From assembly GCA_021108075.1 (NCBI GenBank), contig JAIORP010000090.1, positions 79,828 to 143,827 on the forward strand: a DNA stretch of 64,000 nt. The letters are read 5' to 3'. A model generated the notes under the pieces. The model was not told the origin of the DNA. It saw only the letters and a program-made list of their open reading frames with translations, and did not search any database. The stretch comes from Candidatus Omnitrophota bacterium. Lineage in GTDB: Bacteria > Omnitrophota > Gorgyraeia > Zapsychrales > Zapsychraceae. The position numbers and the translations under genes were made by a program. This document shows, piece after piece, positions 5,627 to 44,285 of this stretch (positions within the stretch are counted from its first letter, which is position 1; every line of letters begins with the position of its first letter).

Positions 5627-7363
5627 ATGGAAAATAAAATGTTAGATAGCTTAAGACATAGTTGCTCTCACGTTATGGCACAAGCTGTCAAAGAACTTTG
5701 GCCGGACGTGAAAGTGGCGATAGGTCCAGCCATTGAGGATGGTTTTTATTATGATTTTGATAAATCGGAACCATTTACTCCGCAAGATTTAAAGAAAATC
5801 GAAAAACGGATGAGAAAAATTACCAGCGCAAAATTGCCGATCAAGCAATCCTTCATGCCTAAGGCCGATGCGCTAAAATTTTTCAGTGAAAAAAATGAAA
5901 CATACAAGTTGGAGCTTATTGAAGGCTTTGAGGATGAGCAGGTCTCTATTTACACGACGGGCGAGGACAAATTTATTGATTTGTGCAAAGGTCCTCACGT
6001 GGAACATACGGGAGAGATCGTCGCCTTTAAGCTTTTATCCATTGCCGGGGCCTATTGGCGTGGGGATGAAAACAATGCCCGCCTGCAACGGATTTATGGA
6101 ACGTGTTTTTACAGCCAGGAAGAGCTGGAGCAACATATCCAATTATTAGAAGAGGCCCAAAAAAGAGATCACCGCAAACTGGGCATACAATTAGATCTTT
6201 TTAATTTTTATTATGATACCGCGGGGGCAGGGCTTGTTTTTTATCATCCGAATGGGGCTATGTTGCGCAATATTATTGAGCAGTACGTACGTGAGGAACA
6301 TGTTAAGAGAGGCTATGAATTTGTGATAACACCGAATATTTTGAAGGGCAAACTATGGGTTCAAAGCGGGCATGCTGACCATTATCGCGAAAATATGTAT
6401 TTTTTTGATGTTGATGGAGAAGAATATGCTGTTAAGCCGATGAATTGTCCCGGGCACATGTTGATTTATAAGTCCCGATTACGTTCTTACCGGGATCTTC
6501 CCCTGAAATTTTTTGAATTAGGTACAGTTTACCGACGAGAAAAAACAGGCGTTCTACACGGGTTGTTAAGAGTTCGTGGCTTTACACAAGATGATGCTCA
6601 TATATTTTGCGCAAAAGATCAAGTCCAGCAGGAAGTTGTTAAAGTCATAGAGTTTGTCTTTGATTTTATGCATACATTTGGCTTTAAAGATTTAAATATT
6701 GAAGTGAGTACGCGGCCGGATGACTTTATCGGAGCTGTAGAGGATTGGGATGTGGCTACGCAGGCACTGGAAGCTTCATTAAAGGAGAAGCATCTGGAGT
6801 ATCAAATCAACGAAGGCGATGGCGCTTTTTACGGTCCGAAAATTGACATTAAGCTAAAGGATGCTCTAAGAAGAGAATGGCAGTGCGCGACTATTCAATG
6901 TGATTTTTCTTTGCCAGAACGCTTTAATTTAAGTTATACTAATGCAAAAGGGGAGCCTACGCGACCCATTATGATTCATCGTGCTATTATGGGCAGTGTG
7001 GAGCGTTTTATCGGAACCTTAATTGAACACTATGCCGGGGCGTTTCCCGTTTGGTTAGCGCCTGTCCAAGTACTGTTGATCCCGATTCGCGAATCTCATC
7101 AAGAATATTCCAATCAGGTTAAAGAGCGTATGCTAGCTGAAGGAATGAGGGTAACGGTTGATTACCGCAATGAAAGCTTGAACAAAAGAATTAGGGAAGG
7201 GACATTGAAGAAAATTCCCTATATTATCATTATTGGGGATAATGAACAATCGTCGCAGACACTGGCTATTCGCAGACATGGCAAAGGGGATCAAGGTGTT
7301 GTCCCTCTTGATGATTTTCTTTTAAAAATAAAGAAAGAAATAGAACAGAAAAGTTTAGATTAG
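5627..7363 (+). CDS. thrS: Threonine--tRNA ligase (no N-terminal TGS domain)
   Basis: Editing-domain HxxxH, class II motifs and an anticodon-binding domain. The protein is 578 aa and starts directly in the editing domain. Confidence 0.9.
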   Translation: MENKMLDSLRHSCSHVMAQAVKELWPDVKVAIGPAIEDGFYYDFDKSEPFTPQDLKKIEKRMRKITSAKLPIKQSFMPKADALKFFSEKNETYKLELIEGFEDEQVSIYTTGEDKFIDLCKGPHVEHTGEIVAFKLLSIAGAYWRGDENNARLQRIYGTCFYSQEELEQHIQLLEEAQKRDHRKLGIQLDLFNFYYDTAGAGLVFYHPNGAMLRNIIEQYVREEHVKRGYEFVITPNILKGKLWVQSGHADHYRENMYFFDVDGEEYAVKPMNCPGHMLIYKSRLRSYRDLPLKFFELGTVYRREKTGVLHGLLRVRGFTQDDAHIFCAKDQVQQEVVKVIEFVFDFMHTFGFKDLNIEVSTRPDDFIGAVEDWDVATQALEASLKEKHLEYQINEGDGAFYGPKIDIKLKDALRREWQCATIQCDFSLPERFNLSYTNAKGEPTRPIMIHRAIMGSVERFIGTLIEHYAGAFPVWLAPVQVLLIPIRESHQEYSNQVKERMLAEGMRVTVDYRNESLNKRIREGTLKKIPYIIIIGDNEQSSQTLAIRRHGKGDQGVVPLDDFLLKIKKEIEQKSLD

Positions 7364-7386
7364 TTTATTAATAAGGAGGTGTCATT

Positions 7387-7905
7387 ATTCAAAAGTTTGT
7401 GCGCATTAACGAATCAATCAGAGCTAAAGAGGTTCGAGTTATTGGACCGAATTCAGAACAACTTGGCGTTGTTGTTTTAAAGCGGGCATTGGATTTAGCT
7501 GAAGAATATGATCAGGATTTGGTCGAAATCGCCCCAACAGCTACTCCTCCTGTTTGTCGGATTATGGATTACAGTAAATATAAATATGACCAGGAGAAAA
7601 AAGAGCGAAGAATAAAGAAAAATCAAGTTGTTACTCATCTAAAACAGATTCGGTTAAAACCTCACATTGGAGAAAGCGATTATCAGGTTAAGTTAAAAAA
7701 AGCAAAGAGTTTTTTAGAAAAAAAGGATAAAGTGAAGGTCAATATGTTTTTTCGAGGACGTGAAATGGCTCATCGCGAATTGGGCCGTGAGATTTTAGAA
7801 AAAATGAGGACCGATTTGATCGAACTTGGGAAAGTTGAGAAAGAGCCATCCATGGAAGGACGCGTGATGTCCATGGTTTTTGCTCCTCATACGAGTAAAA
7901 TCTAA
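7387..7905 (+). CDS. infC: Translation initiation factor IF-3, predicted AUU start
   Basis: IF3 N-terminus (INESIRAKEVRVIGPN) and C-domain. The SD AGGAGG at 7374-7379 is 6-7 nt from the in-frame ATT at 7387. The GTG at 7399 used by the ORF track is 19 nt from the SD. Confidence 0.8.
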   Translation: MQKFVRINESIRAKEVRVIGPNSEQLGVVVLKRALDLAEEYDQDLVEIAPTATPPVCRIMDYSKYKYDQEKKERRIKKNQVVTHLKQIRLKPHIGESDYQVKLKKAKSFLEKKDKVKVNMFFRGREMAHRELGREILEKMRTDLIELGKVEKEPSMEGRVMSMVFAPHTSKI

Positions 7906-8690: not shown

Positions 8691-8724
8691 GCCCATTATC
8701 CGATCGTGATAATGGGCTTTTTTC
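8691..8724 (+). terminator. Rho-independent terminator after rplT
   Basis: Hairpin GCCCATTATC(cgatcgt)GATAATGGGC followed by TTTTTT. Confidence 0.7.
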
Positions 8725-8896
8725 TTGTTTCCGGGAATGATTTAACAGAATGCGTGATTGAACGTGATCAGGTGGTTGATTGACAAAAACAGGGAATTCC
8801 GTATTATATTATACCGAATCCATTAATGACTTATTTTATTTCGATTTTGATATTCTAGATAAAGCGTTGATAAAAGCAGAATCGGTTTTGGTAATG

Positions 8897-9002
8897 ATAC
8901 CAAATTCATTGAATAATTCATCTGATTTCTCATTGCTATTTGCGTAAAAGCGTTCGCAAAAAATGATGAGAAATTTTGGCAATTATTTAATGGATTTGGT
9001 AT
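8897..9002. repeat. MITE/REP-like dispersed repeat, copy a (subfamily A: core ...TGATTTCTC...AAAAAATGATGAG)
   Basis: Left TIR ATACCAAATTCATTGAATAATT and right TIR AATTATTTAATGGATTTGGTAT. The internal sequence closely matches copy h at 43993-44099. Confidence 0.6.
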
Positions 9003-9338
9003 AAATAGATGGATTTTTATCGCAGTCAGGAAATCATCTCTGTTTGTTTTTGGTTGTTGAAAACAAGTGAAAGACAAATCAGTCATCCCGCTCAGATTCG
9101 CCGTTCATCATCAAGTGTTTTTATTCAAAAAATGAAGAAGATCGCCACTAAAAAACAGCAATAAGAACAACTCAGAATAAATGATTAACACAAGAAAGAG
9201 AGCGGTCTTTGAAATTCAGGGATTATTCTAACCCGGGATGATGTCCATATAATATTTTTTTGGTATTAATAATTGGTAAAGAGGCTATTGTGAATTTATC
9301 ATATAGAGCAAACAATATTATGTTTTTTATTTGAGTTA

Positions 9339-9367
9339 TTGTTCCGGACCGGACCCTGGGGTATAAT
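9339..9367 (+). promoter_or_regulatory. Sigma70-type promoter TTGTTC-17-TATAAT upstream of trkA
   Basis: The spacer and -10 are consensus, about 90 nt upstream of the trkA start. Confidence 0.45.
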
Positions 9368-9458
9368 AGCGACATTCATTGAGGAATATGGTACGTATTC
9401 TTGAAACACGCACTGCGTAGTTTAAATTTGTAGTAACCATAAAAATAGGTTTTGTCTT

Positions 9459-10823
9459 ATGCGCATTATTATTGTTGGAGCTGGACGAATCGGCATGAAT
9501 TTAGCGAAAACGTTAACCAAAGAAAATAATGAAGTTTATATGATTGAAAGTGATCCAGACACAGCCCTCAACGCGGATGAGAAATTGGACGTGAAGGTCA
9601 TTACGGGCAATGGCGCAAATCCGAAAACATTAAAAATAGCCCAAGCTCATCGGGCTGATTTGGTGATTGCTGTGACAATGTCGGATGAAACAAATCTCGT
9701 TGTCAGTTCGTTGGCTTCATACTACGGCGCCAAGCGCTGCATTGCCCGGGTTAGAAATACGAATTTGAGTCAGGAAATTGATAAGAGTGGATATCATCAT
9801 TTTCATATTGATGAAATCATCAATCCGGAAGAGGTTGCGGGAGAAGCCATTGTCAAAACAATTGAAGCGCCGGGCGCTTGTGAAGTTGCGGATTTCGCTG
9901 ATGGCCGAATTCTGTTAAGATCTTTTGATATTTCTTTAGAGTCGTCTTTATGTGGAACTAAAATCAGTGACTTTGGAGATGACGATTTTCCCTGGCCCTT
10001 CTTGATCGTTGCCATTCGTCGGCAAGGAGAAGTGATTATTCCAAAAGGTGAAACACACGTTGAGCGCGATGACCGTATTTATGTTTTATTGCCAACCCCG
10101 TCGTTAGGCGAATTTATAACCTTTGTTGATCCTGAAAGCAGAAAACCAAATAAAATAATTATTTATGGTGCAACTAAGACTGGAGAGCATGTTGCCCAGG
10201 CTTTATTTCAAGACGTTAAGGATATTATTTTGATAGAGGAGAGTCCTCATTTAGCAGCACTCATAGCCAGTCAAATTCCCGGTGTTCGCATCATTAATGG
10301 ATCGGCATCAGAGAAGGACATATTGAAAGAATGTGGAATCGAAGCCGCAGACATTTTCATAGCAGCGACAGATAATGATCATTCCAACTTAATTAGTGCT
10401 GTTTTAGCGAAACGGATGGGCGCAAAAAAAACGATTATCACAACGCAGCAGCCAGATTATACCTCAATTGTTGGGGCATTAGAGATTGATGCGATTGTTA
10501 GTCCGCACTTATTGGCTGTGGAACAGATTTTGCGGTATGTGAGGGGCAAAGGAATTAGCGCCATCACAAAATTTTTAGATTGTGACGCTGAAGCGGTTGA
10601 ATTTATTTGTGAGGCAGGGGCCCCGATAACAAAAAAAGCCCTAAAGGATTTGACTTTTCCTCAAAATTCGATTGTTGGCGCTGTCGATAAAGGGTCAGAA
10701 GTGGTCCTTGCTAAGGGCGACACGCAGATCAATGCTGGCGAACGCGTTATTGTTTTTTGTCAGGAGTCGGCCGTGAAAAAGCTACAGTCTTTATTTACAC
10801 ATAAAAAGATGTTTAAAAAATAA
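9459..10823 (+). CDS. trkA: Trk potassium uptake protein TrkA (two RCK_N/RCK_C pairs)
   Basis: N-terminal Rossmann GAGRIG and a second GxGxxG in the second half. The protein is 454 aa. Confidence 0.9.
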   Translation: MRIIIVGAGRIGMNLAKTLTKENNEVYMIESDPDTALNADEKLDVKVITGNGANPKTLKIAQAHRADLVIAVTMSDETNLVVSSLASYYGAKRCIARVRNTNLSQEIDKSGYHHFHIDEIINPEEVAGEAIVKTIEAPGACEVADFADGRILLRSFDISLESSLCGTKISDFGDDDFPWPFLIVAIRRQGEVIIPKGETHVERDDRIYVLLPTPSLGEFITFVDPESRKPNKIIIYGATKTGEHVAQALFQDVKDIILIEESPHLAALIASQIPGVRIINGSASEKDILKECGIEAADIFIAATDNDHSNLISAVLAKRMGAKKTIITTQQPDYTSIVGALEIDAIVSPHLLAVEQILRYVRGKGISAITKFLDCDAEAVEFICEAGAPITKKALKDLTFPQNSIVGAVDKGSEVVLAKGDTQINAGERVIVFCQESAVKKLQSLFTHKKMFKK

Positions 10824-10847
10824 TTTATTCGGAGTCAATGCGGAATA

Positions 10848-10950
10848 ATACCAAATCCATCAAATAATTGTCCTATTTGAATGCTAATATTCTCGTTTAG
10901 ACGTCGAGAATATCGCAATGACTCTGATAATTATTTGATGGATTTGGTAC
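10848..10950. repeat. MITE/REP-like dispersed repeat, copy b (subfamily B: core GAATGCTAATATTCTCG...CGAGAATAT)
   Basis: TIRs ATACCAAATCCATCAAATAATTG / CAATTATTTGATGGATTTGGTAC with a nested inner inverted repeat ATTCTCG...CGAGAAT. Related to copies c, d and g. Confidence 0.65.
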
Positions 10951-10993
10951 AATTGGCTAAATGTAGAATTTTATTTTTATTTTATATCCTCCT

Positions 10994-12448
10994 ATGCATA
11001 AAAGATTTATTGCAAATATCATTTCCAGGATCGTTCTAATTGTTTGTTGCTTTCTGTTCGTTCCTTTGATTTGGGCGATCCTTGCTGATCCAAACAGCAC
11101 AGAGGTTAAAGCTTTTATCTATACCATTTTGTTCGGATCGGCCGGGGCCTTGATTATTCTTAAAAACGTTAAATTAAGAGCATCTGATCATGATAAATTA
11201 AATGCCAAGGATGGTTTAGCTATTGTGGGATTGTCTTGGGTTATTCTTTCTGCTTTGGGAGCCTTACCATTATACTTAACAAACACCGTTCCTTCCTACA
11301 CAGACGCATACTTTGAAATTGTTAGTGGCTTTACGACAACAGGAGCAACCGTTATAACAGAGATTGAGTCCTTGCCTCGCGGAATTATGTTCTGGCGCAG
11401 TCTAACGCACTGGCTTGGTGGTATGGGGATTATTGTGCTGTATTTAGCGCTTTTACCCGCCTTTGGTTCAAACGCATTTCAGTTATATAAAGCGGAAGCT
11501 CCCGGCATAACGGTTGAGCGAACAGAACCCCGCATTACGGAAACAGCCAAGACACTGTGGGGTGTTTATTTTCTTTTATCCTTTTTAGAAACGTGTTTAT
11601 TGATGTTCGGGGGGATGCCTTTCTACGATGCCTTATGTCACACTTTTGGCACAATGGCGACGGGGGGATTTTCGACTAAAAATACCAGTATTTCTGCGTA
11701 TGACCCATATATTCAGTGGGTCATTATTGTTTTTATGTTTTTGGCCGGCTGCAATTTTATGTTGCATTACCAGGCTTTGAAAGGAAGATTAAAAGGATAT
11801 ATCAGAAATGAAGAGTTCCAGTCTTATTTGTTTGTTATTTTAGGGTCGATTGTTGTCTTTAGTTTGATTTTATTCTTCGGGCAATATTCCAACGCGCCTG
11901 TAAGAGATGCCACCTTTCAAGTTGTCGCGATAATCACAACAACCGGTTTTTGCACAGCTGATTTTGACTTGTGGCCTCATTTTTTGCGTTTTGCACTGGT
12001 TTGTTTGATGTTCATTGGTGGGTGCGGAGGATCAACAGGCGGCGGAATGAAAATTGTGCGGTTTTTTCTTTCTATTAAAATCGCCTTTCGATCGGTTATC
12101 CAAACGATTTTTCCAAACGCGGTTGTGTCTGTTCGGTTTAACGGAGCAGCTTGTTCAGAAAGGATTTTAAGGGCCGTTAGCGCTTATTTTATCATTTTTA
12201 TGTTTTTGTTTTTTTTGGGAGCGATTGTGTTGACCATTACCGATCAATGTGATTTGGTCACTGCATTTTCTGCCTCAATCGCTTCTTTAAGCAATATTGG
12301 CCCAGGATTAGCAAAGGTTGGAGCCGTTCAAAACTATGCGTGGATATCTCTTCCCGGCAAGTGGATGCTGATTTTTTTAATGTTAGCTGGCAGATTAGAG
12401 CTTTATTCGATTTTGATCCTCTTTCATCCGGCTACCTGGCGAAAATGA
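10994..12448 (+). CDS. trkH: Trk potassium uptake transporter TrkH
   Basis: Polytopic membrane protein with TrkH/KtrB-type repeated MPM motifs (GFSTxN-like). It follows trkA. Confidence 0.9.
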   Translation: MHKRFIANIISRIVLIVCCFLFVPLIWAILADPNSTEVKAFIYTILFGSAGALIILKNVKLRASDHDKLNAKDGLAIVGLSWVILSALGALPLYLTNTVPSYTDAYFEIVSGFTTTGATVITEIESLPRGIMFWRSLTHWLGGMGIIVLYLALLPAFGSNAFQLYKAEAPGITVERTEPRITETAKTLWGVYFLLSFLETCLLMFGGMPFYDALCHTFGTMATGGFSTKNTSISAYDPYIQWVIIVFMFLAGCNFMLHYQALKGRLKGYIRNEEFQSYLFVILGSIVVFSLILFFGQYSNAPVRDATFQVVAIITTTGFCTADFDLWPHFLRFALVCLMFIGGCGGSTGGGMKIVRFFLSIKIAFRSVIQTIFPNAVVSVRFNGAACSERILRAVSAYFIIFMFLFFLGAIVLTITDQCDLVTAFSASIASLSNIGPGLAKVGAVQNYAWISLPGKWMLIFLMLAGRLELYSILILFHPATWRK

Positions 12449-12451
12449 CCT

Positions 12452-12487
12452 GACCGGTCTCTTTTTCCCCGGTCCTATTTTTTTTAA
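12452..12487 (+). terminator. Rho-independent terminator after trkH
   Basis: Hairpin GACCGG(tctctttttcc)CCGGTC followed by CTATTTTTTTT. Confidence 0.6.
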
Positions 12488-12627
12488 TTTATCTTGATGT
12501 CTTCTGGTAAATAAAGTAGATTAATAACATATTTGGTCTATTTGAGCATAACTCGTTCAGATTTTTCGTTTTTTTTAAAACGGGAATGGCTCAACACAGG
12601 GGTGGCAAAAAAACACAAAAAACTGTT

Positions 12628-12654
12628 TTGAGAAAATGTAATTACTGCTACAAT
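12628..12654 (+). promoter_or_regulatory. Candidate promoter TTGAGA-15-TACAAT for the GNAT-E1 gene
   Basis: Good -10 TACAAT but a short 15-bp spacer. The alternative pairing is TTTTGA-17-TACAAT. Confidence 0.3.
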
Positions 12655-12699
12655 GTCACCATAAAATAGGGTTTTGTTTTATTCTACGGTGTTTATATC

Positions 12700-12750
12700 T
12701 AGCCATGCATTATGGAAGCACCATAACATGGTGTCTTTTTTTTTCTAATT
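12700..12750 (+). promoter_or_regulatory. Leader hairpins with a terminator-like element (possible attenuator) upstream of the GNAT-E1 gene
   Basis: Hairpin CCATGCATTATGG followed by CACCAT(aac)ATGGTG and a T9 run, about 45 nt before the CDS start. It also encodes a 16-codon mini-ORF, MHYGSTITWCLFFSNF. Confidence 0.4.
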
Positions 12751-12796
12751 TTTAGTTGTGGTGAAATTAATGATTTTTAAAAAAATATAAAGAGGG

Positions 12797-14314
12797 ATGC
12801 GCATGTATCATTTTAAAGAAGCTCAGACAGAGCAAGAATATCAAAAAATATATGCATTACGTTATCAGGTGTATTGTCTTGAAAACGATTGGTTGCCTCC
12901 GGAAAATTATCCGAATAATCTAGAAAAAGATTTTTATGATGCGTATTCAAAACATTTTTATGCGGAAGATAAAAATGGCGAGGTTATAGGAACCATTCGT
13001 TTGATTTTACCCCATAAAATTCCGTTACACAGAACCTTGCCGATCGTTGATCATCCCAATGTCCAGCTCCATACCTTTAGCGTTCCCAATCAATGTGCTG
13101 AGATTTCCCGTTTAGTGGTCAACAAAAAAGTACGGAGAGGCGACATTGCCTTAGGATTATACCGAATCCTCTATCAATATGCGCGTGATAACGATATTCA
13201 GCACTGGTACATTTTGGTTGATGAGATTTTTTTGAAAATTTTACAAAAATTAGGGTTTCCGTTTAAACCTTTTGCCTGCCCGGGGGAATACATGGGTATC
13301 ACGATACCGGCGGAATCTCCTCTTGATGCGATTGAGCATCACCTGCAATTTAAGAATGCGCAATTTTTTGAATGGTTTCAGGATACGTCCACAGTTTTAA
13401 AAGAAACGCGGTTAATGTCTAAGTTTTTCAGGACCCAGGACAGATACGCTATTCCTAAAAAAGGTATTTATTCAAGAAATTGGGCTTTTATTTCTCGCTC
13501 GCTGCAAGACAAGCTGAAAGACACCCGTATGTTTATTGCCGGGTCAGGATTGGGAAGCGTTATCGCGCAAACAGCCGTTCGAACGGGCATCGGACGTTTT
13601 ATTGTCGCGGATGGTGATCGGGTGGAAGTCTCAAATTTAAACCGTCAGGCATTTAATAGCCGTGATCTTTCGCAGAACAAGGCTTGGGCGACTGCGAATA
13701 TGATCAAACGGATCCATCCGGATGTTGAAGTAGAGGTTATTGATGAATTTTTGACCCCAAAAACGTTAGCTGCGCCGATCAGCAAAGCAGATATTATTGT
13801 CAACACCATTGATTTTGACCACCCCGCTTTTTTGGATTGTAACCGCAAAGCAAGAAATCTTGGCAAAACGGTTTTTTTTCCTATAAACATTGGCTGGGGG
13901 GGGGCGTTGTTAATATTTACGCCGGAATCTCCGACCCTGGAGGAAGTGTTAGGCCTGACTCCGCTCAAACAATATTCTTTTGATCAAATAAAACAGAAAT
14001 TAATTCGAAAAATTATCAGTTCAGAAATTCCGGATTATCTTTTATCCCTGGTTGATATTTTTGAAAGTCCTGTAGCTGGTGAATGGTACAATGATCCACA
14101 AATGTCTGTTGGATGCTCTATTTCTTCATCCCTGGTTGTGACAGCAGCGGTTTCCATTGTCGCAGGACAATCGGTAAAAGTTGTCCCGGATCACACATAT
14201 ATTGATTTTCATGAATTAGTTCAGCAAAAATTTCAGGGCTTACATTCCATTGATGATCTGATTCAGAATTACGGATTTGTTGATCCAATACATAATGTTG
14301 GTGCAGGAATATAA
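12797..14314 (+). CDS. Two-domain fusion: N-terminal GNAT (FeeM/LuxI-like N-acyl amino acid synthase-type) and C-terminal ThiF/MoeB/E1-like adenylyltransferase
   Basis: The N-terminal 200 aa carry the YALRYQVYCLENDW motif typical of FeeM-type GNATs. The C-terminal 270 aa carry the E1 nucleotide-binding signature AGSGLGSVIAQTAVRTGIGRFIVADGDRVEVSNLNRQ. Confidence 0.7.
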   Translation: MRMYHFKEAQTEQEYQKIYALRYQVYCLENDWLPPENYPNNLEKDFYDAYSKHFYAEDKNGEVIGTIRLILPHKIPLHRTLPIVDHPNVQLHTFSVPNQCAEISRLVVNKKVRRGDIALGLYRILYQYARDNDIQHWYILVDEIFLKILQKLGFPFKPFACPGEYMGITIPAESPLDAIEHHLQFKNAQFFEWFQDTSTVLKETRLMSKFFRTQDRYAIPKKGIYSRNWAFISRSLQDKLKDTRMFIAGSGLGSVIAQTAVRTGIGRFIVADGDRVEVSNLNRQAFNSRDLSQNKAWATANMIKRIHPDVEVEVIDEFLTPKTLAAPISKADIIVNTIDFDHPAFLDCNRKARNLGKTVFFPINIGWGGALLIFTPESPTLEEVLGLTPLKQYSFDQIKQKLIRKIISSEIPDYLLSLVDIFESPVAGEWYNDPQMSVGCSISSSLVVTAAVSIVAGQSVKVVPDHTYIDFHELVQQKFQGLHSIDDLIQNYGFVDPIHNVGAGI

Positions 14315-14329
14315 TTTAATCAGACATGA

Positions 14330-14360
14330 AAAGCCTCCATTTTTATGGGGGCTTTTTTTG
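14330..14360 (+). terminator. Rho-independent terminator after the GNAT-E1 gene
   Basis: Hairpin AAGCCTCC(atttttat)GGGGGCTT followed by TTTTTTT. Confidence 0.55.
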
Positions 14361-14454
14361 TGGGCGTAGAACCGTCAGGCGTGAGCCGGTGTTTTTTTAC
14401 GGCAAGTCGGAGGACATCGGTTGTGCCAATGTTTATAACAACCGTTTGCAAGTT

Positions 14455-14555
14455 GAAAATATTTGGTATAATTATCCTATTTGAATGCTAATATTTTCAT
14501 TCAAACGTCGAGAATATTATAATGACTTTGGTAATTTTTTAATGGATTTGACATT
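14455..14555. repeat. MITE/REP-like repeat, copy c (subfamily B, degenerate left end)
   Basis: CCTATTTGAATGCTAATATTTTCATTCAAACGTCGAGAATATTATAATGACTTTGGTAATTTTTTAATGGATTTGACAT aligns with copy b. Confidence 0.55.
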
Positions 14556-14597
14556 ATTAGCCTGTTTAGAGCTTGAAAGTCATAAAAAGGAATTGCG

Positions 14598-15326
14598 ATG
14601 AAAAAGAACACAGTGAAAATTACAAATTTTCAGCTAAAAACCGCGCAGATTATTTCAGATAAATATGAGGTTGTATCAAAATTGGGTTCAGGTTGGGAAG
14701 GAGAAGTTTATAAGATTAGGGAAATGCGAACAGGGATTGAGCGGGCCGCGAAGTTGTTTTTTCCGCAACGCAACATCAATCATAAGGCGTCTTGTTTTTA
14801 TGCGCGAAAATTACACAAATTACGCAAATGTCAAATATTGATTCAGTATCACACGGAAGAAACATTGTATTTTGATGGGCTTCCCATCACTATGTTGGTT
14901 TCTGAATATGTCGAAGGACAGCTCCTCTCTGATTTTGTGCGATCGTTTCCCGGGAAAAAATTGACGCCATTTCAGGCGTTGCATCTATTATATTCCCTTG
15001 TCAAAGGGATTGAAGACATTCACTTGCTGAATGAGTATCATGGCGATTTGCATTCCGACAATGTGATTGTTAACCGGTTTGGTTTGTATTTTGAATTAAA
15101 GCTTTTGGACATGTTTCATTGGTCTTCACCCAGCAAAGCTAATCGGGAAGATGATCTGTGCGAACTGATTCATATTTTTTATGATTCACTCGGGGGCGCA
15201 AAATATTATTCCAAGTTCCCACAAGAAATAAAAAAAATATGCTGTGGGTTAAAAAAGGGTTTGATTCTAAAAAAATTTAGGACAGTTTCCCAGTTGCGGG
15301 AATATTTAGAAACGATGAAATGGTAA
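14598..15326 (+). CDS. Small atypical protein kinase-like protein (RIO/Bud32/Kdo-kinase-like fold)
   Basis: Glycine loop LGSGWEGEVYK, lysine AAK, catalytic loop HGDLHSDNVIV and a downstream LLDMF. The protein is 242 aa. Confidence 0.55.
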   Translation: MKKNTVKITNFQLKTAQIISDKYEVVSKLGSGWEGEVYKIREMRTGIERAAKLFFPQRNINHKASCFYARKLHKLRKCQILIQYHTEETLYFDGLPITMLVSEYVEGQLLSDFVRSFPGKKLTPFQALHLLYSLVKGIEDIHLLNEYHGDLHSDNVIVNRFGLYFELKLLDMFHWSSPSKANREDDLCELIHIFYDSLGGAKYYSKFPQEIKKICCGLKKGLILKKFRTVSQLREYLETMKW

Positions 15327-15432
15327 TACCAATTCCATTAAATAATGACCCAAATTTTATCTCGCTTTTCTCGAATGCTTTTATGGGAACAGCGAGATGA
15401 AATCAGAAATATTATTTAATGGAATTGGTCGT
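15326..15432. repeat. MITE/REP-like repeat, copy d (subfamily B) with covarying TIRs
   Basis: Left TIR ATACCAATTCCATTAAATAATG and right TIR ATTATTTAATGGAATTGGT, which are exact reverse complements and carry the AATT variant. There is an inner inverted repeat ATCTCGCT...AGCGAGAT. Confidence 0.55.
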
Positions 15433-15495
15433 GTCAAATGGGTCTTTATTTTCTGTAATTGGTATAAATATCAGGGAAAGGGAAGGGCTCTGTGC

Positions 15496-16284
15496 ATGTC
15501 CAGGATGACATTTAAAAAATATGGAAATAGCCCTTCGGTCGTCCTTGTCCATGGAGGGCCGGGAGCGGCTGGGGAAATGACACCGGTTGCAGAAGAATTA
15601 TCAGCTAAGTTCGATATTCTTGAACCATGGCAAACAGCACGAACAATTGAGGGGCAAGTTGAAGAGCTGGCAAAAATTATAAAAAATGAAGCGGTGTGTC
15701 CGGTTATCTTAATGGGGTTTTCATGGGGAGCCTGGCTGATTTGTTTTGTCGCCGCACAGTATCCGGATATTGTTAAAAAATTGGTGCTTATTAGTAGCGC
15801 TCCTTTTGAGCAATCCTGTGCTGACGTGATTCAACAAAAACGATTCGAACGCATGAATGCTGCTGACCGTCAAAAAGTTCGTTTATGGACCCGAGAACTG
15901 CAAGACATCACGAATGATCATCGGGATGAGATCTTGTTGGAAATAGGTTTGAGTTATGAAAAAGCTGACACATTTATTCCGTTGCAGGATGTGAAAAATG
16001 ACATCGAATTTGATGCGAATATCTATCGGCAAATTTGGCCGCAAGCCACTCAATGGCGCAGGGAAGGAAGGCTTTTAGATTTACGGGAGAAGATTCAATG
16101 CCCTGTTGTTGCTCTGCATGGAGATTATGACCCCCATCCAGCACAAGGCGTTTTTGAGCCGCTCAAACATCTTGCCTCTTTTCGTTTTATCGTATTGTCT
16201 CAATGCGGACATAAACCCTGGGTCGAGAAATTAGTTCGGGAACGTTTCTATGATATTTTAAGGGATATTATTGATGAAGCGTAA
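15496..16284 (+). CDS. Alpha/beta-fold hydrolase
   Basis: VVLVHGGPG and nucleophile elbow GFSWGA. I moved the start to the ATG at 15496 because the track start at 15397 lies inside repeat copy d. An SD-like GGGAAGGG sits upstream. Confidence 0.65.
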   Translation: MSRMTFKKYGNSPSVVLVHGGPGAAGEMTPVAEELSAKFDILEPWQTARTIEGQVEELAKIIKNEAVCPVILMGFSWGAWLICFVAAQYPDIVKKLVLISSAPFEQSCADVIQQKRFERMNAADRQKVRLWTRELQDITNDHRDEILLEIGLSYEKADTFIPLQDVKNDIEFDANIYRQIWPQATQWRREGRLLDLREKIQCPVVALHGDYDPHPAQGVFEPLKHLASFRFIVLSQCGHKPWVEKLVRERFYDILRDIIDEA

Positions 16285-22164: not shown

Positions 22165-22396
22165 GTTGACCCAATTTTATTGATTTATTAATTTTATATT
22201 AGCTGCTAAAATAATATTCCCTGCTGTGCGCGTTAGGGTGCATACATATAGAACCAATACTCTATAAAGGGCGCTAAACTTCTCTGGTATCCGTGGATAG
22301 CTGAGAGAGGTGCCCACGTGGTGACAACGGTTCACCATATTGTGTATCCGACGGCATAAGCGGGGAATTTTTTTATTTAACCATAATATTAAACTG

Positions 22397-22440
22397 TTAC
22401 CAAATCCATTAAATGGGACAATTATTTAATGGATTTGGCA
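22397..22440. repeat. Minimal palindromic unit of the repeat family, copy e (TIRs back-to-back)
   Basis: ACCAAATCCATTAAAT gggaca ATTATTTAATGGATTTGG. Confidence 0.5.
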
Positions 22441-29831: not shown

Positions 29832-30041
29832 GACCACGGGAAGCAATGTCAGCATTTTTTTATCAGTTACGGATATTTAGGCATTCTTCTGCTTCGATAT
29901 GTCCGTTTATGCCCGGTCGCCTGGGATTATTCAAAAACCATGCTGACCTCGAATTTTGAAGGAATATGGATCATGGGATTTTAAATAGCCTTAAATCAGA
30001 AATATTTGGATGAGAACAGGATATTGATTGAGGAGGGCATT

Positions 30042-30425
30042 ATGAAAGAATTGACAGGAAGGATTATTTTTGGAAACGGTGCGGCCGCCCAGCGTTTTAA
30101 AATCTGCCGGCTGGTCATGAAGAAGTACGGCCTGGTTTTTCCCCCGCTTCATTTTGGAACAATCAACATCAAATTAGACATGCCTTTTGAGACACCCTAT
30201 TATGGGATTATTATCCCGTATCATAAATTGGATGAAATTTCTTGCATGAATAAAGAATACTGGCAGTTCATTCCTGTTGATCTCGTGAACCAACGTAAGC
30301 GGCAGGGCTATATTCTTCGCACGAGCCTGAATATTCACGGTGACCGTGTGATTGAATTATTGACGGAAGACATCGCGACAGAGGCAGAGAAAGACAAGAC
30401 GATAACCGTAACCTTAACGCTGTAA
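30042..30425 (+). CDS. Hypothetical protein
   Basis: ORF with a strong SD (GAGGAGGG) before the ATG at 30042. No recognisable domain. Confidence 0.4.
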   Translation: MKELTGRIIFGNGAAAQRFKICRLVMKKYGLVFPPLHFGTINIKLDMPFETPYYGIIIPYHKLDEISCMNKEYWQFIPVDLVNQRKRQGYILRTSLNIHGDRVIELLTEDIATEAEKDKTITVTLTL

Positions 30426-30441
30426 TGGATTTGGTATTAAA
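30423..30441. repeat. Solo half-site of the repeat family, copy f (TAATGGATTTGGTATT)
   Basis: Matches the right TIR. It overlaps the stop codon of the upstream ORF. Confidence 0.35.
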
Positions 30442-40271: not shown

Positions 40272-41681
40272 GTGCTGTGGGTCCGCAGCACACCGCGCAG
40301 GGGAGATCGTGTGCTCTTATCCAAATATTGTGTCATTGTCCCTGATTACCCGTATAAAGGGCAGCACGTGGTGTTCCATACCGGGACCCAGGCCCTTGTT
40401 CTGCTCGATTCGCAGGCCCTGTCATACCTTAAAAATGAAATACGCTTAAATACATTGCCCCCTAAAAAACAAATAGAGTATCAAAAGATGCTTCCCGAAT
40501 TGCGTCAGATGGGGATACTTGTCAAAGACCAGCAGGAAGACGCCGCTTACCTTGAATCTTTTTTTGATCAGTTAAAACGTCAACGCATCAGAAAAACATG
40601 GCCTGTGACCATTTTGACAACAGACGCCTGCAATTTTCAATGCGTTTATTGTTTTGAGGAAAATGCCCGCCGCAATATTGCGATGAATTTAGAGGTGCAA
40701 ACAGACACACTGGCTTTCATCAAAAATCGGATGACCAGCGATAAATATGAACGGCTCTATGTGACTTTTTACGGGGGGGAGCCGTTATTAAAACCGGCGG
40801 TGATCACACATCTCGCTTCGAACTTAAAAAATTGGTCGAAGAAGGCGGGTGTCGTTTTTGAATTTATGCTCCAGACGAACGGCTATTTATTAAGCCCGAA
40901 TCTGGTGCGCTCCTTGATTCCGTTAGGTCTGGACCAGGTCCGTGTCAGCTTGGATGGTCCAAGAGATGTTCATGATGCGCGCAGACCGTTACGTTCGGGA
41001 GGGCGGACGTTTGATACGATTATAAAGAATATTTTAGCCAGCATGGATTCGATTAAAATTTGCGTTTCCGTCTGCTACGAGAAAGACCATTTGCAGGATA
41101 TCGACGCGCTTTTATCCTTTTTAAAGCAAAAAAATATGCTGCATCAATTGGGACGTTTTATTTTTTCCCCGATTCATCCCCGGTTAGGGACGCCTGAGGA
41201 TAAAAACCGCATTCAGCATTTTGATTGCATGATCAATTATCAAGACGCCAATTTGGTCCAATCGATTTCCGTGATACGAGACATATTAAAAACCTATGAT
41301 GTGGACGATAGCCGGAAGGGATTAGCGATTTCAGCCTGTCCTTTGATGCGCGAAAAAGGAGGTTTGACCATCGATCCGTGCGGGTATATTTACAAATGCA
41401 ATTCCATGATCGGTTTTTCGAAATTTTCCGTCGGTCAGGTGAAAGACGCACAGTTTAACCCGCGTGCGGATTATTTCGTGTCTTTAGATCCCTGGCGGTC
41501 CTGTCCGAATGATTGTCCGTATCTTCCCCTTTGTGGTGGGGGATGCCGGATGTCCGCGTACTTTAAATATAAAGATTTTAAAGAGCTGGACTGTCATCGT
41601 GATTATTTGGATCAGATGATACCGGTTTTTATCAAAGAAGAATATACCCGTTTGACGACCGAAAAGCAGTATTCCTCATGA
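40272..41681 (+). CDS. Radical SAM/SPASM-domain peptide-modifying enzyme (AnSME/sactisynthase-like)
   Basis: CNFQCVYC (CxxxCxxC) follows a ~115-aa N-terminal extension that resembles a peptide-recognition domain. C-terminal SPASM Cys clusters (CPLM...CGYIYKC...CPNDCPYLPLCGGGC). The GTG start is uncertain. Confidence 0.85.
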   Translation: MLWVRSTPRRGDRVLLSKYCVIVPDYPYKGQHVVFHTGTQALVLLDSQALSYLKNEIRLNTLPPKKQIEYQKMLPELRQMGILVKDQQEDAAYLESFFDQLKRQRIRKTWPVTILTTDACNFQCVYCFEENARRNIAMNLEVQTDTLAFIKNRMTSDKYERLYVTFYGGEPLLKPAVITHLASNLKNWSKKAGVVFEFMLQTNGYLLSPNLVRSLIPLGLDQVRVSLDGPRDVHDARRPLRSGGRTFDTIIKNILASMDSIKICVSVCYEKDHLQDIDALLSFLKQKNMLHQLGRFIFSPIHPRLGTPEDKNRIQHFDCMINYQDANLVQSISVIRDILKTYDVDDSRKGLAISACPLMREKGGLTIDPCGYIYKCNSMIGFSKFSVGQVKDAQFNPRADYFVSLDPWRSCPNDCPYLPLCGGGCRMSAYFKYKDFKELDCHRDYLDQMIPVFIKEEYTRLTTEKQYSS

Positions 41682-41717
41682 TCTTCCTGACAATATATTT
41701 TCCTTCGCCTGTTTATT

Positions 41718-41831
41718 ATACCAAATCCATTAAATAATAACCAAAACCGATTCTGCTTTCCTCGACTTTTTCGCGAGAATATCAGAATTGAAATAGAACA
41801 ATTGCATTTTTCGGGTTAATGGATTTGGTAT
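41718..41831. repeat. MITE/REP-like repeat, copy g (subfamily B)
   Basis: TIRs ATACCAAATCCATTAAATAAT / TTAATGGATTTGGTAT with an inner inverted repeat TTCTCG...CGCGAGAATATC. Confidence 0.65.
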
Positions 41832-42206
41832 TATTTTAAGTTTATGCCTGTCCGTGCAGAAGCGAACGCAGGTCAAGGACAGCTTATCTGCAACGGTGAT
41901 CGAATACAAGACAGAACTCCTGCTGCCCGTGTTTGCCGGATTTGTCTGCGATAGATCCGGAGAATAAAAGCTAAGGAATATTACTTGAGCGACAAAACCG
42001 GCTTAAATTGTTGGATTTATCGTTGAAAACATCGCGAAGGCCTTCATTCTGCCAGAAGCTTGAATGGCGGCTGACATTGCGGGTATATGCTCCAGGCAGG
42101 AGAGTATAAATATCTTTTGATAATAGCTGGATATTATAGTAAATTAAACTAAGAATAATTTAAAGATAGAGATCGAAGGAAAATAGTATCTGTATGCTGT
42201 CCTGCT

Positions 42207-44012
42207 ATGAAATCATTCTACCTAAAGTTAAGAAATTTTATGCCCCGCCGTATCTGGTCGCAGATCTTTATCGTCCTTATTATCGCGGTTATTGTTCCCC
42301 TTTCTCTCCTCGGATTTCTTCTTACGAGTACCAGCCAGGAAGCTGTTAAAGTCAGTGTTTTGCGGGATTACAAGCAAATTGCGACACAAGCTACCGGTGA
42401 AATTAGTCAACACATTTTAGGTGCGAGACAAGCTTTGAGTGTGACGGCGTCTATTTTAGGCACATTGCATGCAGATAGGTGGCGGCAAGAAACAACCATC
42501 GTTGAGTTAGCATTAAAATATCCTATTTTTACCCGCATTGCCTCCATTGATAAAAGCGGACTGGAAATAACAACATCACAGTTAGGAGCACCGCTTCAAA
42601 ACAGAGCAGGGGATGTGCCTTTTATAGAGGCGATGAAAGGCGTGGAATATTTATCTGCCGTCATATTAGCGGACAATTATATCCCTCAAATGACAATGGC
42701 CGTGCCGATTAAACGCCTAGGAAAAATTCAGGGGGTTTTATTGGCGAACCTGAACTTGCGTACGGTTTGGGATATCGTCGACAAGTTGCGTTTTGGCCAA
42801 ACAGGGGAGGCCGTCATCATTGATCAGACAGACCGGGTGATTGCCCATCAGGACAAAAAATTGGTTTTGAATAATCCCAAAAATTACATTGACGGTTTTT
42901 TGAAATATATTCAGCCTGGTGTTAGCGGTAGCGCAGAAATCGTCGATAACAGTAATCGCGGGGTGATCATTGCCTACGCTCCGATAACGGATTTGAATTG
43001 GAAATTGATTATCTTTCAAAAACAAGAAGAAGCGTACTCATTTCTGAAAAAGATGCAATATCAATCACAGATTATTTTTATTTTTAGTCTGGTCATAACG
43101 ATTTTTATTAGTATCTTTCTTGCCCGGTGGATGAGCCAGCCTTTAAACAAAATTATCCAGGGGACCCAAAAAATAGCCCAAGGTGATTTTTCTCAATTTT
43201 TACGCGTACAGCGTCGAGATGAAATTGGTAAATTGTTCTTTTCTTTTAATCGCATGACGCGACGCCTGCGGGAAGCGAGAAAAGTGGAGAAATTGTCCAT
43301 TATTGGAAAAGCTGCCGCGGCGATTGCTCACGAATTAAAGAATTCCTTGGTTCTTGTCAATACGTTTATTGAATTGTTGCCGAAAAGGCACAAGGACCAG
43401 AAATTTATTAAAGAATTTTTTCAAACGGTTCCTCAGGAGTTGGAATCCTGGAACACCATGTTAAAAAATATGATGAGTATTAACCCTCCGGAACTAGAGA
43501 ATATTCCTTTCAGTGAACTTTCGATTAATGTGATTGTCAAAAATATAATCACATTGGTGCAGATGAAAGCCGACCAAAAAGACATTGCAATCAAATTATC
43601 ATTTGATGAAGCCAATCCTGTGGTCCAATGCAATGAAGAAAAAATAAGACACGCGATTCTAAATATTATGACAAATGCCTTAGATGCCACCCCTTATGGG
43701 GGAGAGGTGGAAATACAAACAAAATGCATTTTGCGTTGCCAGGATCGGTTGGAGTCTAAGGTGGAAATTGTGATTATAAATAGTGGCCAACATATTGATG
43801 AATCAAAGATCGATAAAATTTTTGAGCCGTTTTATACCACGAAAGGGGGTGGATTCGGTTTGGGCTTAGCGATTAGCATGGAAATCGTCAAAGCTCATAT
43901 GGGTACGATTACGGTTGTGAATCAATTTCCGCAGGGCGTTGTCTTTACCATTATTTTGCCTTCCAAGAACGTTTCTGCTTCGACACCATCTAAGACCAAA
44001 TTCAATAAATAA
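42207..44012 (+). CDS. Sensor histidine kinase (2 TM, extracytoplasmic sensor domain, HAMP, HisKA, HATPase)
   Basis: TM1, a ~260-aa periplasmic domain, TM2, HAMP, H-box IAHELKNSL and G-boxes GGFGLGL. Confidence 0.85.
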   Translation: MKSFYLKLRNFMPRRIWSQIFIVLIIAVIVPLSLLGFLLTSTSQEAVKVSVLRDYKQIATQATGEISQHILGARQALSVTASILGTLHADRWRQETTIVELALKYPIFTRIASIDKSGLEITTSQLGAPLQNRAGDVPFIEAMKGVEYLSAVILADNYIPQMTMAVPIKRLGKIQGVLLANLNLRTVWDIVDKLRFGQTGEAVIIDQTDRVIAHQDKKLVLNNPKNYIDGFLKYIQPGVSGSAEIVDNSNRGVIIAYAPITDLNWKLIIFQKQEEAYSFLKKMQYQSQIIFIFSLVITIFISIFLARWMSQPLNKIIQGTQKIAQGDFSQFLRVQRRDEIGKLFFSFNRMTRRLREARKVEKLSIIGKAAAAIAHELKNSLVLVNTFIELLPKRHKDQKFIKEFFQTVPQELESWNTMLKNMMSINPPELENIPFSELSINVIVKNIITLVQMKADQKDIAIKLSFDEANPVVQCNEEKIRHAILNIMTNALDATPYGGEVEIQTKCILRCQDRLESKVEIVIINSGQHIDESKIDKIFEPFYTTKGGGFGLGLAISMEIVKAHMGTITVVNQFPQGVVFTIILPSKNVSASTPSKTKFNK

Positions 44013-44099
44013 TTCTTCTGATTTCTCCTCGTTATTTGCATAAAAGCATTCGTAAAAAATGATGAGATTTTTTGAAATTATTGAATGAAATTGGTATAA
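43993..44099. repeat. MITE/REP-like repeat, copy h (subfamily A), left TIR overlapping the HK stop codon
   Basis: ACCAAATTCAATAAATAATT...AATTATTGAATGAAATTGGTATA. The internal sequence aligns with copy a, and the last 6 codons plus stop of the HK lie within the TIR. Confidence 0.55.
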
Positions 44100-44194
44100 T
44101 TACGCAGCGTTGATTTTTTGCCGTCTTTACGTCCACCTGTAAGAATGATGATTTGATCTGGTATTTTTTATATGTTTTTATAAAATATATGAAG

Positions 44195-44222: not shown

Positions 44223-44285
44223 GGATTGAAACTATTTACAAATTATAAAAATTGCGTAAGAATAATAGAAACGGAGGGGGAGGAA

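Follow-up and report, generated by a model that had tools for sequence, protein, structure and literature searches.

A relative in kind of the element presented here is RUP (repeat unit of pneumococcus), a 107-bp sequence present in about 108 copies in Streptococcus pneumoniae, with termini like those of the insertion sequence (IS) IS630-Spn1, which is thought to mobilize it in trans (PMC2229807). The present study concerns a family of short repeats dispersed over 64,000 nucleotides of DNA from a Candidatus Omnitrophota bacterium (assembly GCA_021108075.1, contig JAIORP010000090.1, positions 79,828 to 143,827 of the forward strand), a stretch hereafter called the window. These repeats are very probably decayed copies of a non-coding MITE (miniature inverted-repeat transposable element) of about 103 bp whose ends match those of an IS630-family IS of the Omnitrophota. 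The Omnitrophota MITE recalls RUP in its size, its non-coding intergenic architecture, its long stem-loop, its IS630-family partner and its proposed mechanism (PMC2229807). The two elements differ in host phylum and have unrelated termini, and RUP inserts at TA whereas the Omnitrophota MITE duplicates TNA; RUP is its closest analogue, by description and not by membership.

Other described elements share part of these traits. The Correia elements of Neisseria, also called NEMIS (Neisseria miniature insertion sequences), are similar in measuring about 104-157 bp, with terminal repeats of about 24-26 bp, hundreds of intergenic copies and hairpins in transcripts; a -10 box can arise from the element end together with the duplicated target, and pairs of copies can enclose genes (PMC2229807 and general knowledge). 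They differ by a TA duplication, a binding site for integration host factor and documented processing by RNase III. Correia elements are not known to have a cognate transposase, whereas one was found for the Omnitrophota MITE. Tc4 and Tc5 of Caenorhabditis elegans, members of the Tc1/mariner superfamily, make TNA and not TA duplications, and are eukaryotic fold-back elements of far greater length. Nezha, a 130-170-bp MITE of Anabaena and Nostoc, has terminal and direct repeats in common with ISNpu3-like IS, and is likewise documented by filled and empty sites (PMC3184786).

The Omnitrophota MITE is ordinary selfish DNA, the unusual details of which are the duplication of TNA by an IS630-family transposase and a compensated central hairpin. 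A preliminary description of the window had recognized a repeat family with terminal inverted repeats, and this family is real: its 22-nt terminus, with up to three mismatches allowed, is matched ten times in the window and not once in 100 dinucleotide-preserving shuffles, while the outermost 14 nt (TAATGGAWTTGGTA, at most one mismatch) are matched eleven times where 0.17 are expected. The terminal inverted repeat extends over about 21 bp (TACCAAWTCCATTAAATAATT) and full-length similarity between window copies reaches 86%. Full-length copies measure 101-112 bp and are devoid of coding capacity, the open reading frames (ORFs) that overlap them being the ends of neighboring genes only. The census, built from direct sequence reading, repeat detection and a covariance-model scan, comprises six full-length or near-full-length copies (a, b, c, d, g and h), one minimal copy of 43 bp (e) and three remnants; run over the entire window without filters, the covariance-model scan produced no copies beyond these. 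All eight copies previously listed exist and their boundaries moved by 1-3 nt; the earlier count of at least eight had overlooked two remnants, at 8812-8897 and at about 15434-15464. The features are as follows.

8812-8897, + strand: older, interrupted copy; TTA (8809-8811) ahead of the left terminal repeat TACCGAATCCATTAA; interior homologous to that of copy g (8831-8898 is 79% complementary to it); covariance-model match at 8831-8894; right arm split by copy a, the displaced rest lying at about 9005-9022 (ATAGATGGATTTTTAT).
8898-9001, + strand: copy a, full length, 104 bp, 82.8 bits; minimum free energy (MFE) -40.1 kcal/mol, z = -11; flanks TGA (8895-8897) and TAA (9002-9004), a duplication decayed by one base.
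10849-10949, + strand: copy b, to which the coordinates heading the preliminary description refer, full length, 101 bp, 93.2 bits; MFE -43.6 kcal/mol, z = -9.4; flanks TAA (10846-10848) and CAA (10950-10952); located between trkA (9459-10823, TrkA protein MCD4780144.1, whose annotation is to a Candidatus Omnitrophica/Omnitrophota MAG) and trkH (10994-12448).
About 14453-14553, + strand: copy c, which shares 82% identity with b across 94 nt; core match at 14470-14536, 33.9 bits; first ~17 nt of the left terminal repeat unrecognizable; right end GGATTTGACA followed by TTA (14554-14556).
15327-15430, - strand: copy d, full length, 104 bp, 84.2 bits on the - strand; flanks, read on the + strand, TAA (15324-15326), with which the Pkinase ORF 14598-15326 terminates, and GTG on the other side.
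About 15434-15464, + strand: truncated right arm, ...TTATTTTCTGTAATTGGTA followed by TAA; repeat detection at 15446-15470; carries at 15446-15464 the TTTTCTGG variant, found specifically at the right terminus of the complete IS and in MITE copies like L031/L033.
22398-22440, no strand assigned: copy e, minimal, 43 bp, consisting of two terminal repeats and a 9-nt center; 36 bits on either strand; flanks TGT and GGA, no intact duplication.
30423-30436, + strand: copy f, solitary right terminus TAATGGATTTGGTA followed by TTA, an exact match to the 14-mer; it opens with the stop codon of ORF 30006-30425.
41719-41830, - strand: copy g, 112 bp, 62.6 bits on the - strand; insertion of about 10 nt within one terminal repeat; intact duplication TTA (41716-41718) and TTA (41831-41833); preceded by a radical-SAM gene (40272-41681) and followed by a dCache/HAMP histidine kinase gene (42207-44012).
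43994-44096, + strand: copy h, full length, 103 bp, sharing 86% identity with a across 80 nt, 66.2 bits; intact duplication TAA (43991-43993) and TAA (44097-44099); contributes the 6 final codons plus stop codon to the histidine-kinase ORF 42207-44012.

When copy a is taken out together with one 3-bp flank, the older copy at 8812 regains a right repeat in register. The proposed division into subfamilies A (a and h) and B (b, c, d and g) stands in part. Copies a and h are alike; copy d, once reverse-complemented, matches the a/h type (74% over 104 nt) and is nearest to a and h, not to b and c. Because d and g are oriented opposite to a, b, c and h, the split was partly an effect of strand. The placement of copies between genes or at gene ends was correctly noted: all window copies are intergenic or touch gene ends only.

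Copies also occur outside of the window. A scan for the exact 19-mer terminus, with one genome per species, gave multiple matches in two genomes only, the metagenome-assembled genome (MAG) SRP128015_co1_466, labeled 'uncultured Planctomycetales', and Candidatus Omnitrophota OFTM38; the remaining genome matches were single and compatible with chance. In MAG SRP128015_co1_466 the thrS-infC region is syntenic with that of the window and shares ~74-75% of its nucleotides. Scanning of metagenomes contributed another 112 loci; by profile and pattern searches 109 elements were recovered with both ends present, of which 84 measure 98-112 bp. The consensus of the family reads TACCAAWTCCATTAAATAATTGCTCTATTTTTAGCTCTGCTATTCTCGTTAAAGCGTCGAGAAAAGCAAAATTGGTTTTGGTCATTATTTAATGGAWTTGGTA. 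The search for additional copies, which the preliminary description had advised, has therefore uncovered many of them in related genomes, with consistent boundaries, and only 1 of 79 lies inside an ORF. Among viral contigs, five matches were obtained, each a solitary 20-mer within AT-rich coding sequence, and no elements. No paper mentioning both Omnitrophota and MITEs was found in a literature search.

The same termini and TNA flanks also delimit other non-autonomous families with unrelated interiors, of 46, 68, 159, 177-179, 182-194 and 263-276 bp; the 46- and 68-bp derivatives resemble the minimal copy e. The interiors of the 159-, 177-179- and 263-276-bp families are richer in GC and apparently structured (L083 6379-6557, L093 288-466, L108 628-806, L124 11917-12095, L090 3635-3811, L100 6991-7167, L105 1422-1684, L060 10198-10473 and L153 594-752). 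A distinct palindrome of about 90 bp (…AAAAATAACCTCGACAAC…GTTGTCGAGGTTATTTTT…) is central in some MITE copies (L056 1849-2030, L104 2217-2410) and may represent another small mobile element lying within the MITE.

The element makes a 3-bp TNA duplication of its target, a conclusion which is well supported by the flanks. The conserved part stops precisely at TACC…GGTA; directly outside come T (95%), N and A (96-98%) at both ends, and nothing is conserved further out. The check for target-site duplications called for at the outset found identical 3-bp flanks in direct orientation in 65 of 93 non-redundant insertions, where 31.4 are expected (p≤1e-5; the maximum over 100,000 permutations was 50 identical pairs). 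The identical pairs are distributed as TTA (36), TAA (21), TCA (4) and TGA (4), and pairs of the inverted type (TAA with TTA, TGA with TCA) number 12 only. Filled and empty sites tell the same story. The filled site …GCGATAT-TTA-[element]-TTA-GTCGCT… (L106) has the empty homolog …GCGACAT-TTA-GATGCT… (L036). Another filled site, …AAATGAGTAC-TTA-[element]-TTA-TTTAATGG… (L019), lies inside a TTA of the arm of another element, the uninterrupted counterpart of which is AAATGAGTACTTATTTAATGG (L056). The thrS-infC spacer holds a MITE in the syntenic locus L001 (2396-2560) and none in the window, where the spacer has 36 nt (7363-7399). Within the window, intact duplications are found for copies g and h only.

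The 2-bp TA duplication that is canonical for IS630 was considered and rejected, since it could not produce matched TCA or TGA flanks; both filled/empty pairs and a reading-frame test in a TauD gene, described below, also rule it out. The literature searched for TNA duplication in IS630 contained nothing relevant.

Full-length elements with these termini do carry a transposase gene. The presumed partner is an IS of 1141-1148 bp that has the same termini and TTA/TTA or TAA/TAA flanks, and full-length copies are found at the following places.

L061, 199-1342.
L162, 519-1659, with further sites in L163-L167.
L168, 9923-11070, a third IS variant flanked by TTA/TTA.

In L061 two termini, 1144 bp apart and flanked by TAA/TAA, enclose a 349-aa ORF with matches to Pfam DDE_3 (1.5e-26, 93.5 bits) and to HTH_33/32/29. 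On the NCBIfam model NF033545, 'IS630 family transposase', the IS ORFs score 216.5 (L061) and 220.8 bits for a cut-off of 100. A search of protein collections with the transposase retrieved 642 relatives at E ≤ 1e-20, mostly on contigs of ~1.1-1.5 kb, as is expected for a repeated IS. One of these, P0008 (77% identity), corresponds to MCK5081312.1, annotated in a Candidatus Omnitrophota MAG; its IS occupies several different sites, with termini TACCAATTCCATTAAATAATT… and …ATTATTTTCTGGAATTGGTA and flanks TTA/TTA.

The likeness between MITE and IS goes beyond the inverted repeat. At the left end 35 of 40 positions are alike, the 13-mer TTTTAAGGTTGCT included, and at the right end about 30 nt are alike, spanning the stop codon of the transposase. 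The right end of the IS reads GCAATTATTTTCTGGAATTGGTA, and its variant TTTTCTGG occurs in MITE copies L031 and L033 as well as in the window remnant at 15446-15464. We therefore regard the MITE as an end-derived, non-coding relative of the IS lineage, and the 1.14-kb IS630-family IS, judged by its sequence, is likely to be the autonomous partner. An IS with matching terminal repeats and a transposase (L061, L162-L168) had been sought from the start as support for the MITE interpretation, which now draws upon the duplication, the filled and empty sites and this IS together.

Among complete plasmids of cultured bacteria, the closest relatives have 37-45% protein identity, are annotated as IS630 family and show similar ends and TNA flanks.

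Polaromonas JS666 plasmid NC_007950 (L175/L178): TCA-TACCAATCCC…GGGATTGGTA-TCA.
Spartinivicinus ruber plasmid (L176): TGA-TACCAATCG…GGATTGGTA-TGA.
Aeromonas caviae plasmid (L177): TGA-TACCAATCAG…CGATTGGTA-TGA.

The Polaromonas IS interrupts a TauD/TfdA gene. Excising TACC…GGTA together with one TCA restores an ORF of 280 aa; excising CC…GG and one TA instead results in a frameshift and a stop at residue 87. The TNA duplication thus looks like a departure from the IS630 TA rule at the level of a subgroup. The original report on Nezha is said to have proposed a transfer of that element to Polaromonas JS666, a lead only; a plasmid of this strain carries one of the closest named relatives of the transposase of the MITE partner. 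Elsewhere, a 20-kb stretch of the 2.4-Mb contig ERZ25072076 (L169) is dense in transposases of at least five families (DDE_Tnp_1, ISL3, several DDE_3, IS110, DUF772) and holds a relative of the partner IS, 73% identical, with no recognizable right end.

A mechanism can be proposed from the anatomy of the element and from what is established for the transposase superfamily. The helix-turn-helix/DDE transposase encoded by the IS would bind the ~21-bp terminal repeats TACCAAWTCCATTAAATAATT, excise the element and paste it into a TNA target, mostly TTA or TAA, by a 3-bp staggered cut, the repair of which would leave TNA on each side. The MITE appears to have retained the transposase-binding ends alone, about 40 nt of the left end of the IS and about 30 nt of the right, and would consequently move only if the cognate transposase were supplied in trans. 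As a whole it forms a long imperfect palindrome with a conserved central stem-loop. Surviving insertions lie almost all between genes, many of them on or just past stop codons, because TAA and TGA are target sites. Side effects on neighboring genes, through hairpins in transcripts and outward -10 boxes similar to TGGTATAAT, may follow.

Several observations weigh against the interpretation of the repeats as copies of a MITE mobilized by an IS630-family transposase. As previously stated in the preliminary description, no transposase gene is found in the window; a full-length IS is likewise missing from it, and neither is present in the ~16 kb of DNA that flanks it on the source contig (ENA ERZ26872899 NODE_9), of which 9 kb upstream, on the dnaA-dnaN-gyrBA side, and 7 kb downstream were searched; these flanks contain no further MITE copies either. 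Mobilization in trans in the organism of the window is something we infer. The five full-length window copies have a mean pairwise identity of 0.70 and a nearest-neighbor identity of 0.77. Only g and h have kept an intact duplication and the copies have diverged, and the family may be immobile in this genome. A 3-bp TNA duplication departs from the TA duplication that serves as a grouping criterion of IS630/Tc1/mariner, the members of which are conventionally united by it (PMC7325037). Lastly, the covarying central hairpin is superfluous to simple cut-and-paste transposition and hints at an additional constraint.

The state of the copies is that of an old family. In the other two MAGs nearest-neighbor identity reaches 93% and 92%, at loci picked by an exact terminus match, which favors young copies. 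In the window one copy is without one terminus and several are fragments or nested in one another, and the window family has the look of an ancient invasion, by now mostly in decay. Contigs assembled independently from short reads of this organism (L048, L049 and L180; Logan SRR32473238 and SRR15668621) terminate within copies a and b, as fits a multi-copy repeat, repeats being a typical breaking point of short-read assembly.

The alternative that survives best, although we hold it to be rather unlikely, is that of a structured element selected by the host, the hairpin of which would work in RNA or DNA, whether by stabilizing or processing transcripts, by terminating them or by carrying outward promoters; such a role is compatible with a MITE, and comparable ones are on record for Correia, ERIC (enterobacterial repetitive intergenic consensus) and RUP repeats (PMC2229807). 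It draws its strength from the fold. The folding analysis suggested beforehand gave stable structures: each of 66 distinct copies forms one long imperfect hairpin, with a mean z of -6.6 relative to dinucleotide shuffles and an apical loop of 9-10 nt closed by CUCG/CGAG. RNAalifold applied to a plain MAFFT alignment recovered the stem of the terminal repeats only, the center being misaligned between subfamilies; for this reason a covariance model was built on the given structure and 149 matches were realigned to it. This structure alignment follows the model to which it was fitted, and each palindromic copy enters it on both strands, so that pairing counts are upper estimates; 88.4% of its cells are standard pairs, compared with 25-44% after sliding the 3' partners by 1-3 columns, and 20 of 36 pairs changed on both sides. 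The central helix of 10 pairs is 92% paired, with 7 pairs changed on both sides, and compensatory examples are visible by eye (GCTATTCTCG/CGAGAAAAGC, GCTGTGTCTCG/CGAGACAAGC, CTACTTTCTCG/CGAGAAAAGTAG and TTACTTACTCG/CGAGATAAGTAA).

Covariation in the terminal helix is expected in any case from symmetric recognition by the transposase, and that of the arms could also stem from symmetric protein recognition or from a few master copies, in addition to the way in which the alignment was obtained. The modeled central helix is the part left over once transposase binding has been accounted for. Promoters offer a second argument for host selection. The end of the element, the TAA flank and a following T make up TGGTATAAT, an extended -10 box, and at the right end of copy h together with its TAA flank the string TTGAAA-17-TATAAT with an upstream TG constitutes an 11/12 promoter-like match at 44072-44100, facing a response-regulator gene at 44226. 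From these sequences outward transcription from element ends is possible. Over the family, however, promoter-like sites are not enriched (26 against 22.1, and 5 against 9.9, in shuffles). Orientation with respect to co-directional neighboring genes is unbiased as well, 24 copies lying in the same direction and 19 in the opposite one. In a search of the window against Rfam 15 no copy reaches a gathering score, and at E ≤ 1 the region 8700-15600 gave only a 22.7-bit match of the hairpin type to a microRNA model with a gathering score of 99. No copy received a terminator-like call, and no T-run follows the hairpin.

A Tourist-like MITE, moved by a transposon of the IS5 or PIF/Harbinger type, is suggested by the observed TNA duplication. 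IS5-group elements (IS1031/IS427) and PIF/Harbinger elements are classically marked by a 3-bp TNA/TWA duplication, and Tourist elements with PIF/Harbinger, like IS1031/IS427, further resemble the Omnitrophota MITE by their small size and their AT-rich intergenic targets. The difference resides in the transposase family: the only full-length elements with these termini encode a DDE_3, IS630-family enzyme, no IS5-type gene lies between such termini in 1.15 Mb of loci, and the IS630 relatives in Polaromonas, Spartinivicinus and Aeromonas plasmids share the TACCAAT ends and the TNA flanks. We consider this origin contradicted by the transposase, and very improbable.

Slightly less credible still is a repetitive extragenic palindrome (REP) or bacterial interspersed mosaic element (BIME) handled by a REP-associated tyrosine transposase (RAYT, IS200/IS605-like), or a family of palindromic operators, the first of which had been put forward beside the MITE. 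The copies are indeed intergenic, palindromic and numerous, in a window without transposase. The element is nonetheless about 103 bp long, with 21-bp terminal repeats and TACC…GGTA ends, and not a GTAG-headed palindrome of 20-40 nt; it duplicates its target, has filled and empty sites and ends homologous to those of a DDE-type IS, copies are inserted into one another, and presence varies at orthologous sites between species. No RAYT gene turned up, although no genome search was aimed at it. The REP/BIME alternative is left without support, and both it and operator sites are ruled out by the duplication, the filled and empty sites and the homology to the IS. A chance likeness of generic AT-rich, promoter-like motifs, conceivable in a genome of ~40% GC for termini that include TATAAT-like strings, is refuted with negligible residual probability by the terminus counts (ten 22-mers for none expected, eleven 14-mers for 0.17), by the full-length likeness of up to 86% and by covariance scores of 62-93 bits.

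All in all we hold with high confidence that the element is a MITE, and not a REP/BIME, an operator or a promoter motif. A broader proposal is put forward tentatively, as possible rather than probable: that an IS630 subgroup, defined by TACCAAT…ATTGGTA ends, by the Polaromonas, Aeromonas and Spartinivicinus plasmid relatives and by a 3-bp TNA stagger, has spawned unrelated non-autonomous families of 43-276 bp in uncultured bacteria, and that the compensated central hairpin of the ~103-bp family has an extra function, in the synapsis of ends by a cruciform or in a transcript. That the TNA duplication has been undescribed so far and that the hairpin is functional are both uncertain. If unrecorded, TNA duplication by an IS630-family transposase, which extends to cultured Proteobacteria, would be a small and testable exception to the TA rule of the superfamily. 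An identified autonomous partner and dozens of dated insertions could moreover make the family a strain-level marker and a means of tracing past transposon activity within an uncultured phylum.

The window begins just to the right of the origin region (oriC), with dnaA, dnaN, gyrB and gyrA immediately upstream on the other strand, and its large ORFs are all on the + strand; the genes named in the preliminary description are present. For annotators, several gene ends and one called start codon fall inside copies, short-read assemblies of the organism break at copies, and genes flanked by MITEs need not form a mobile unit. Composite transposons were considered, formed by c and d around the kinase gene or by b and c around trkH and a FeeM/ThiF gene, and rejected because the outer flanks mismatch. 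The start codon in question, at 15397, is that called for an alpha/beta-hydrolase ORF and falls inside copy d, which renders it doubtful; the next 70 nt include the second MITE remnant, and an ATG at about 15496, preceded by GGGAAGGG, may be the true start.

A 6S RNA gene was identified at 22215-22370 (Rfam, 54.1 bits), and copy e, a near-perfect 17-bp hairpin, is located 27 nt downstream of it. In the thrS-infC-rpmI-rplT operon, infC seems to start at ATT, both in the window and in L001 (…GGAGGTG(T/C)CATT ATT CAA AAG…). Between 52932 and 59611 the window contains four tandem paralogs of ~450-490 aa (DUF4139 according to the contig annotation), with a DNA identity of 70-79%, the first and second of which are separated by an unrelated ORF of 379 aa.

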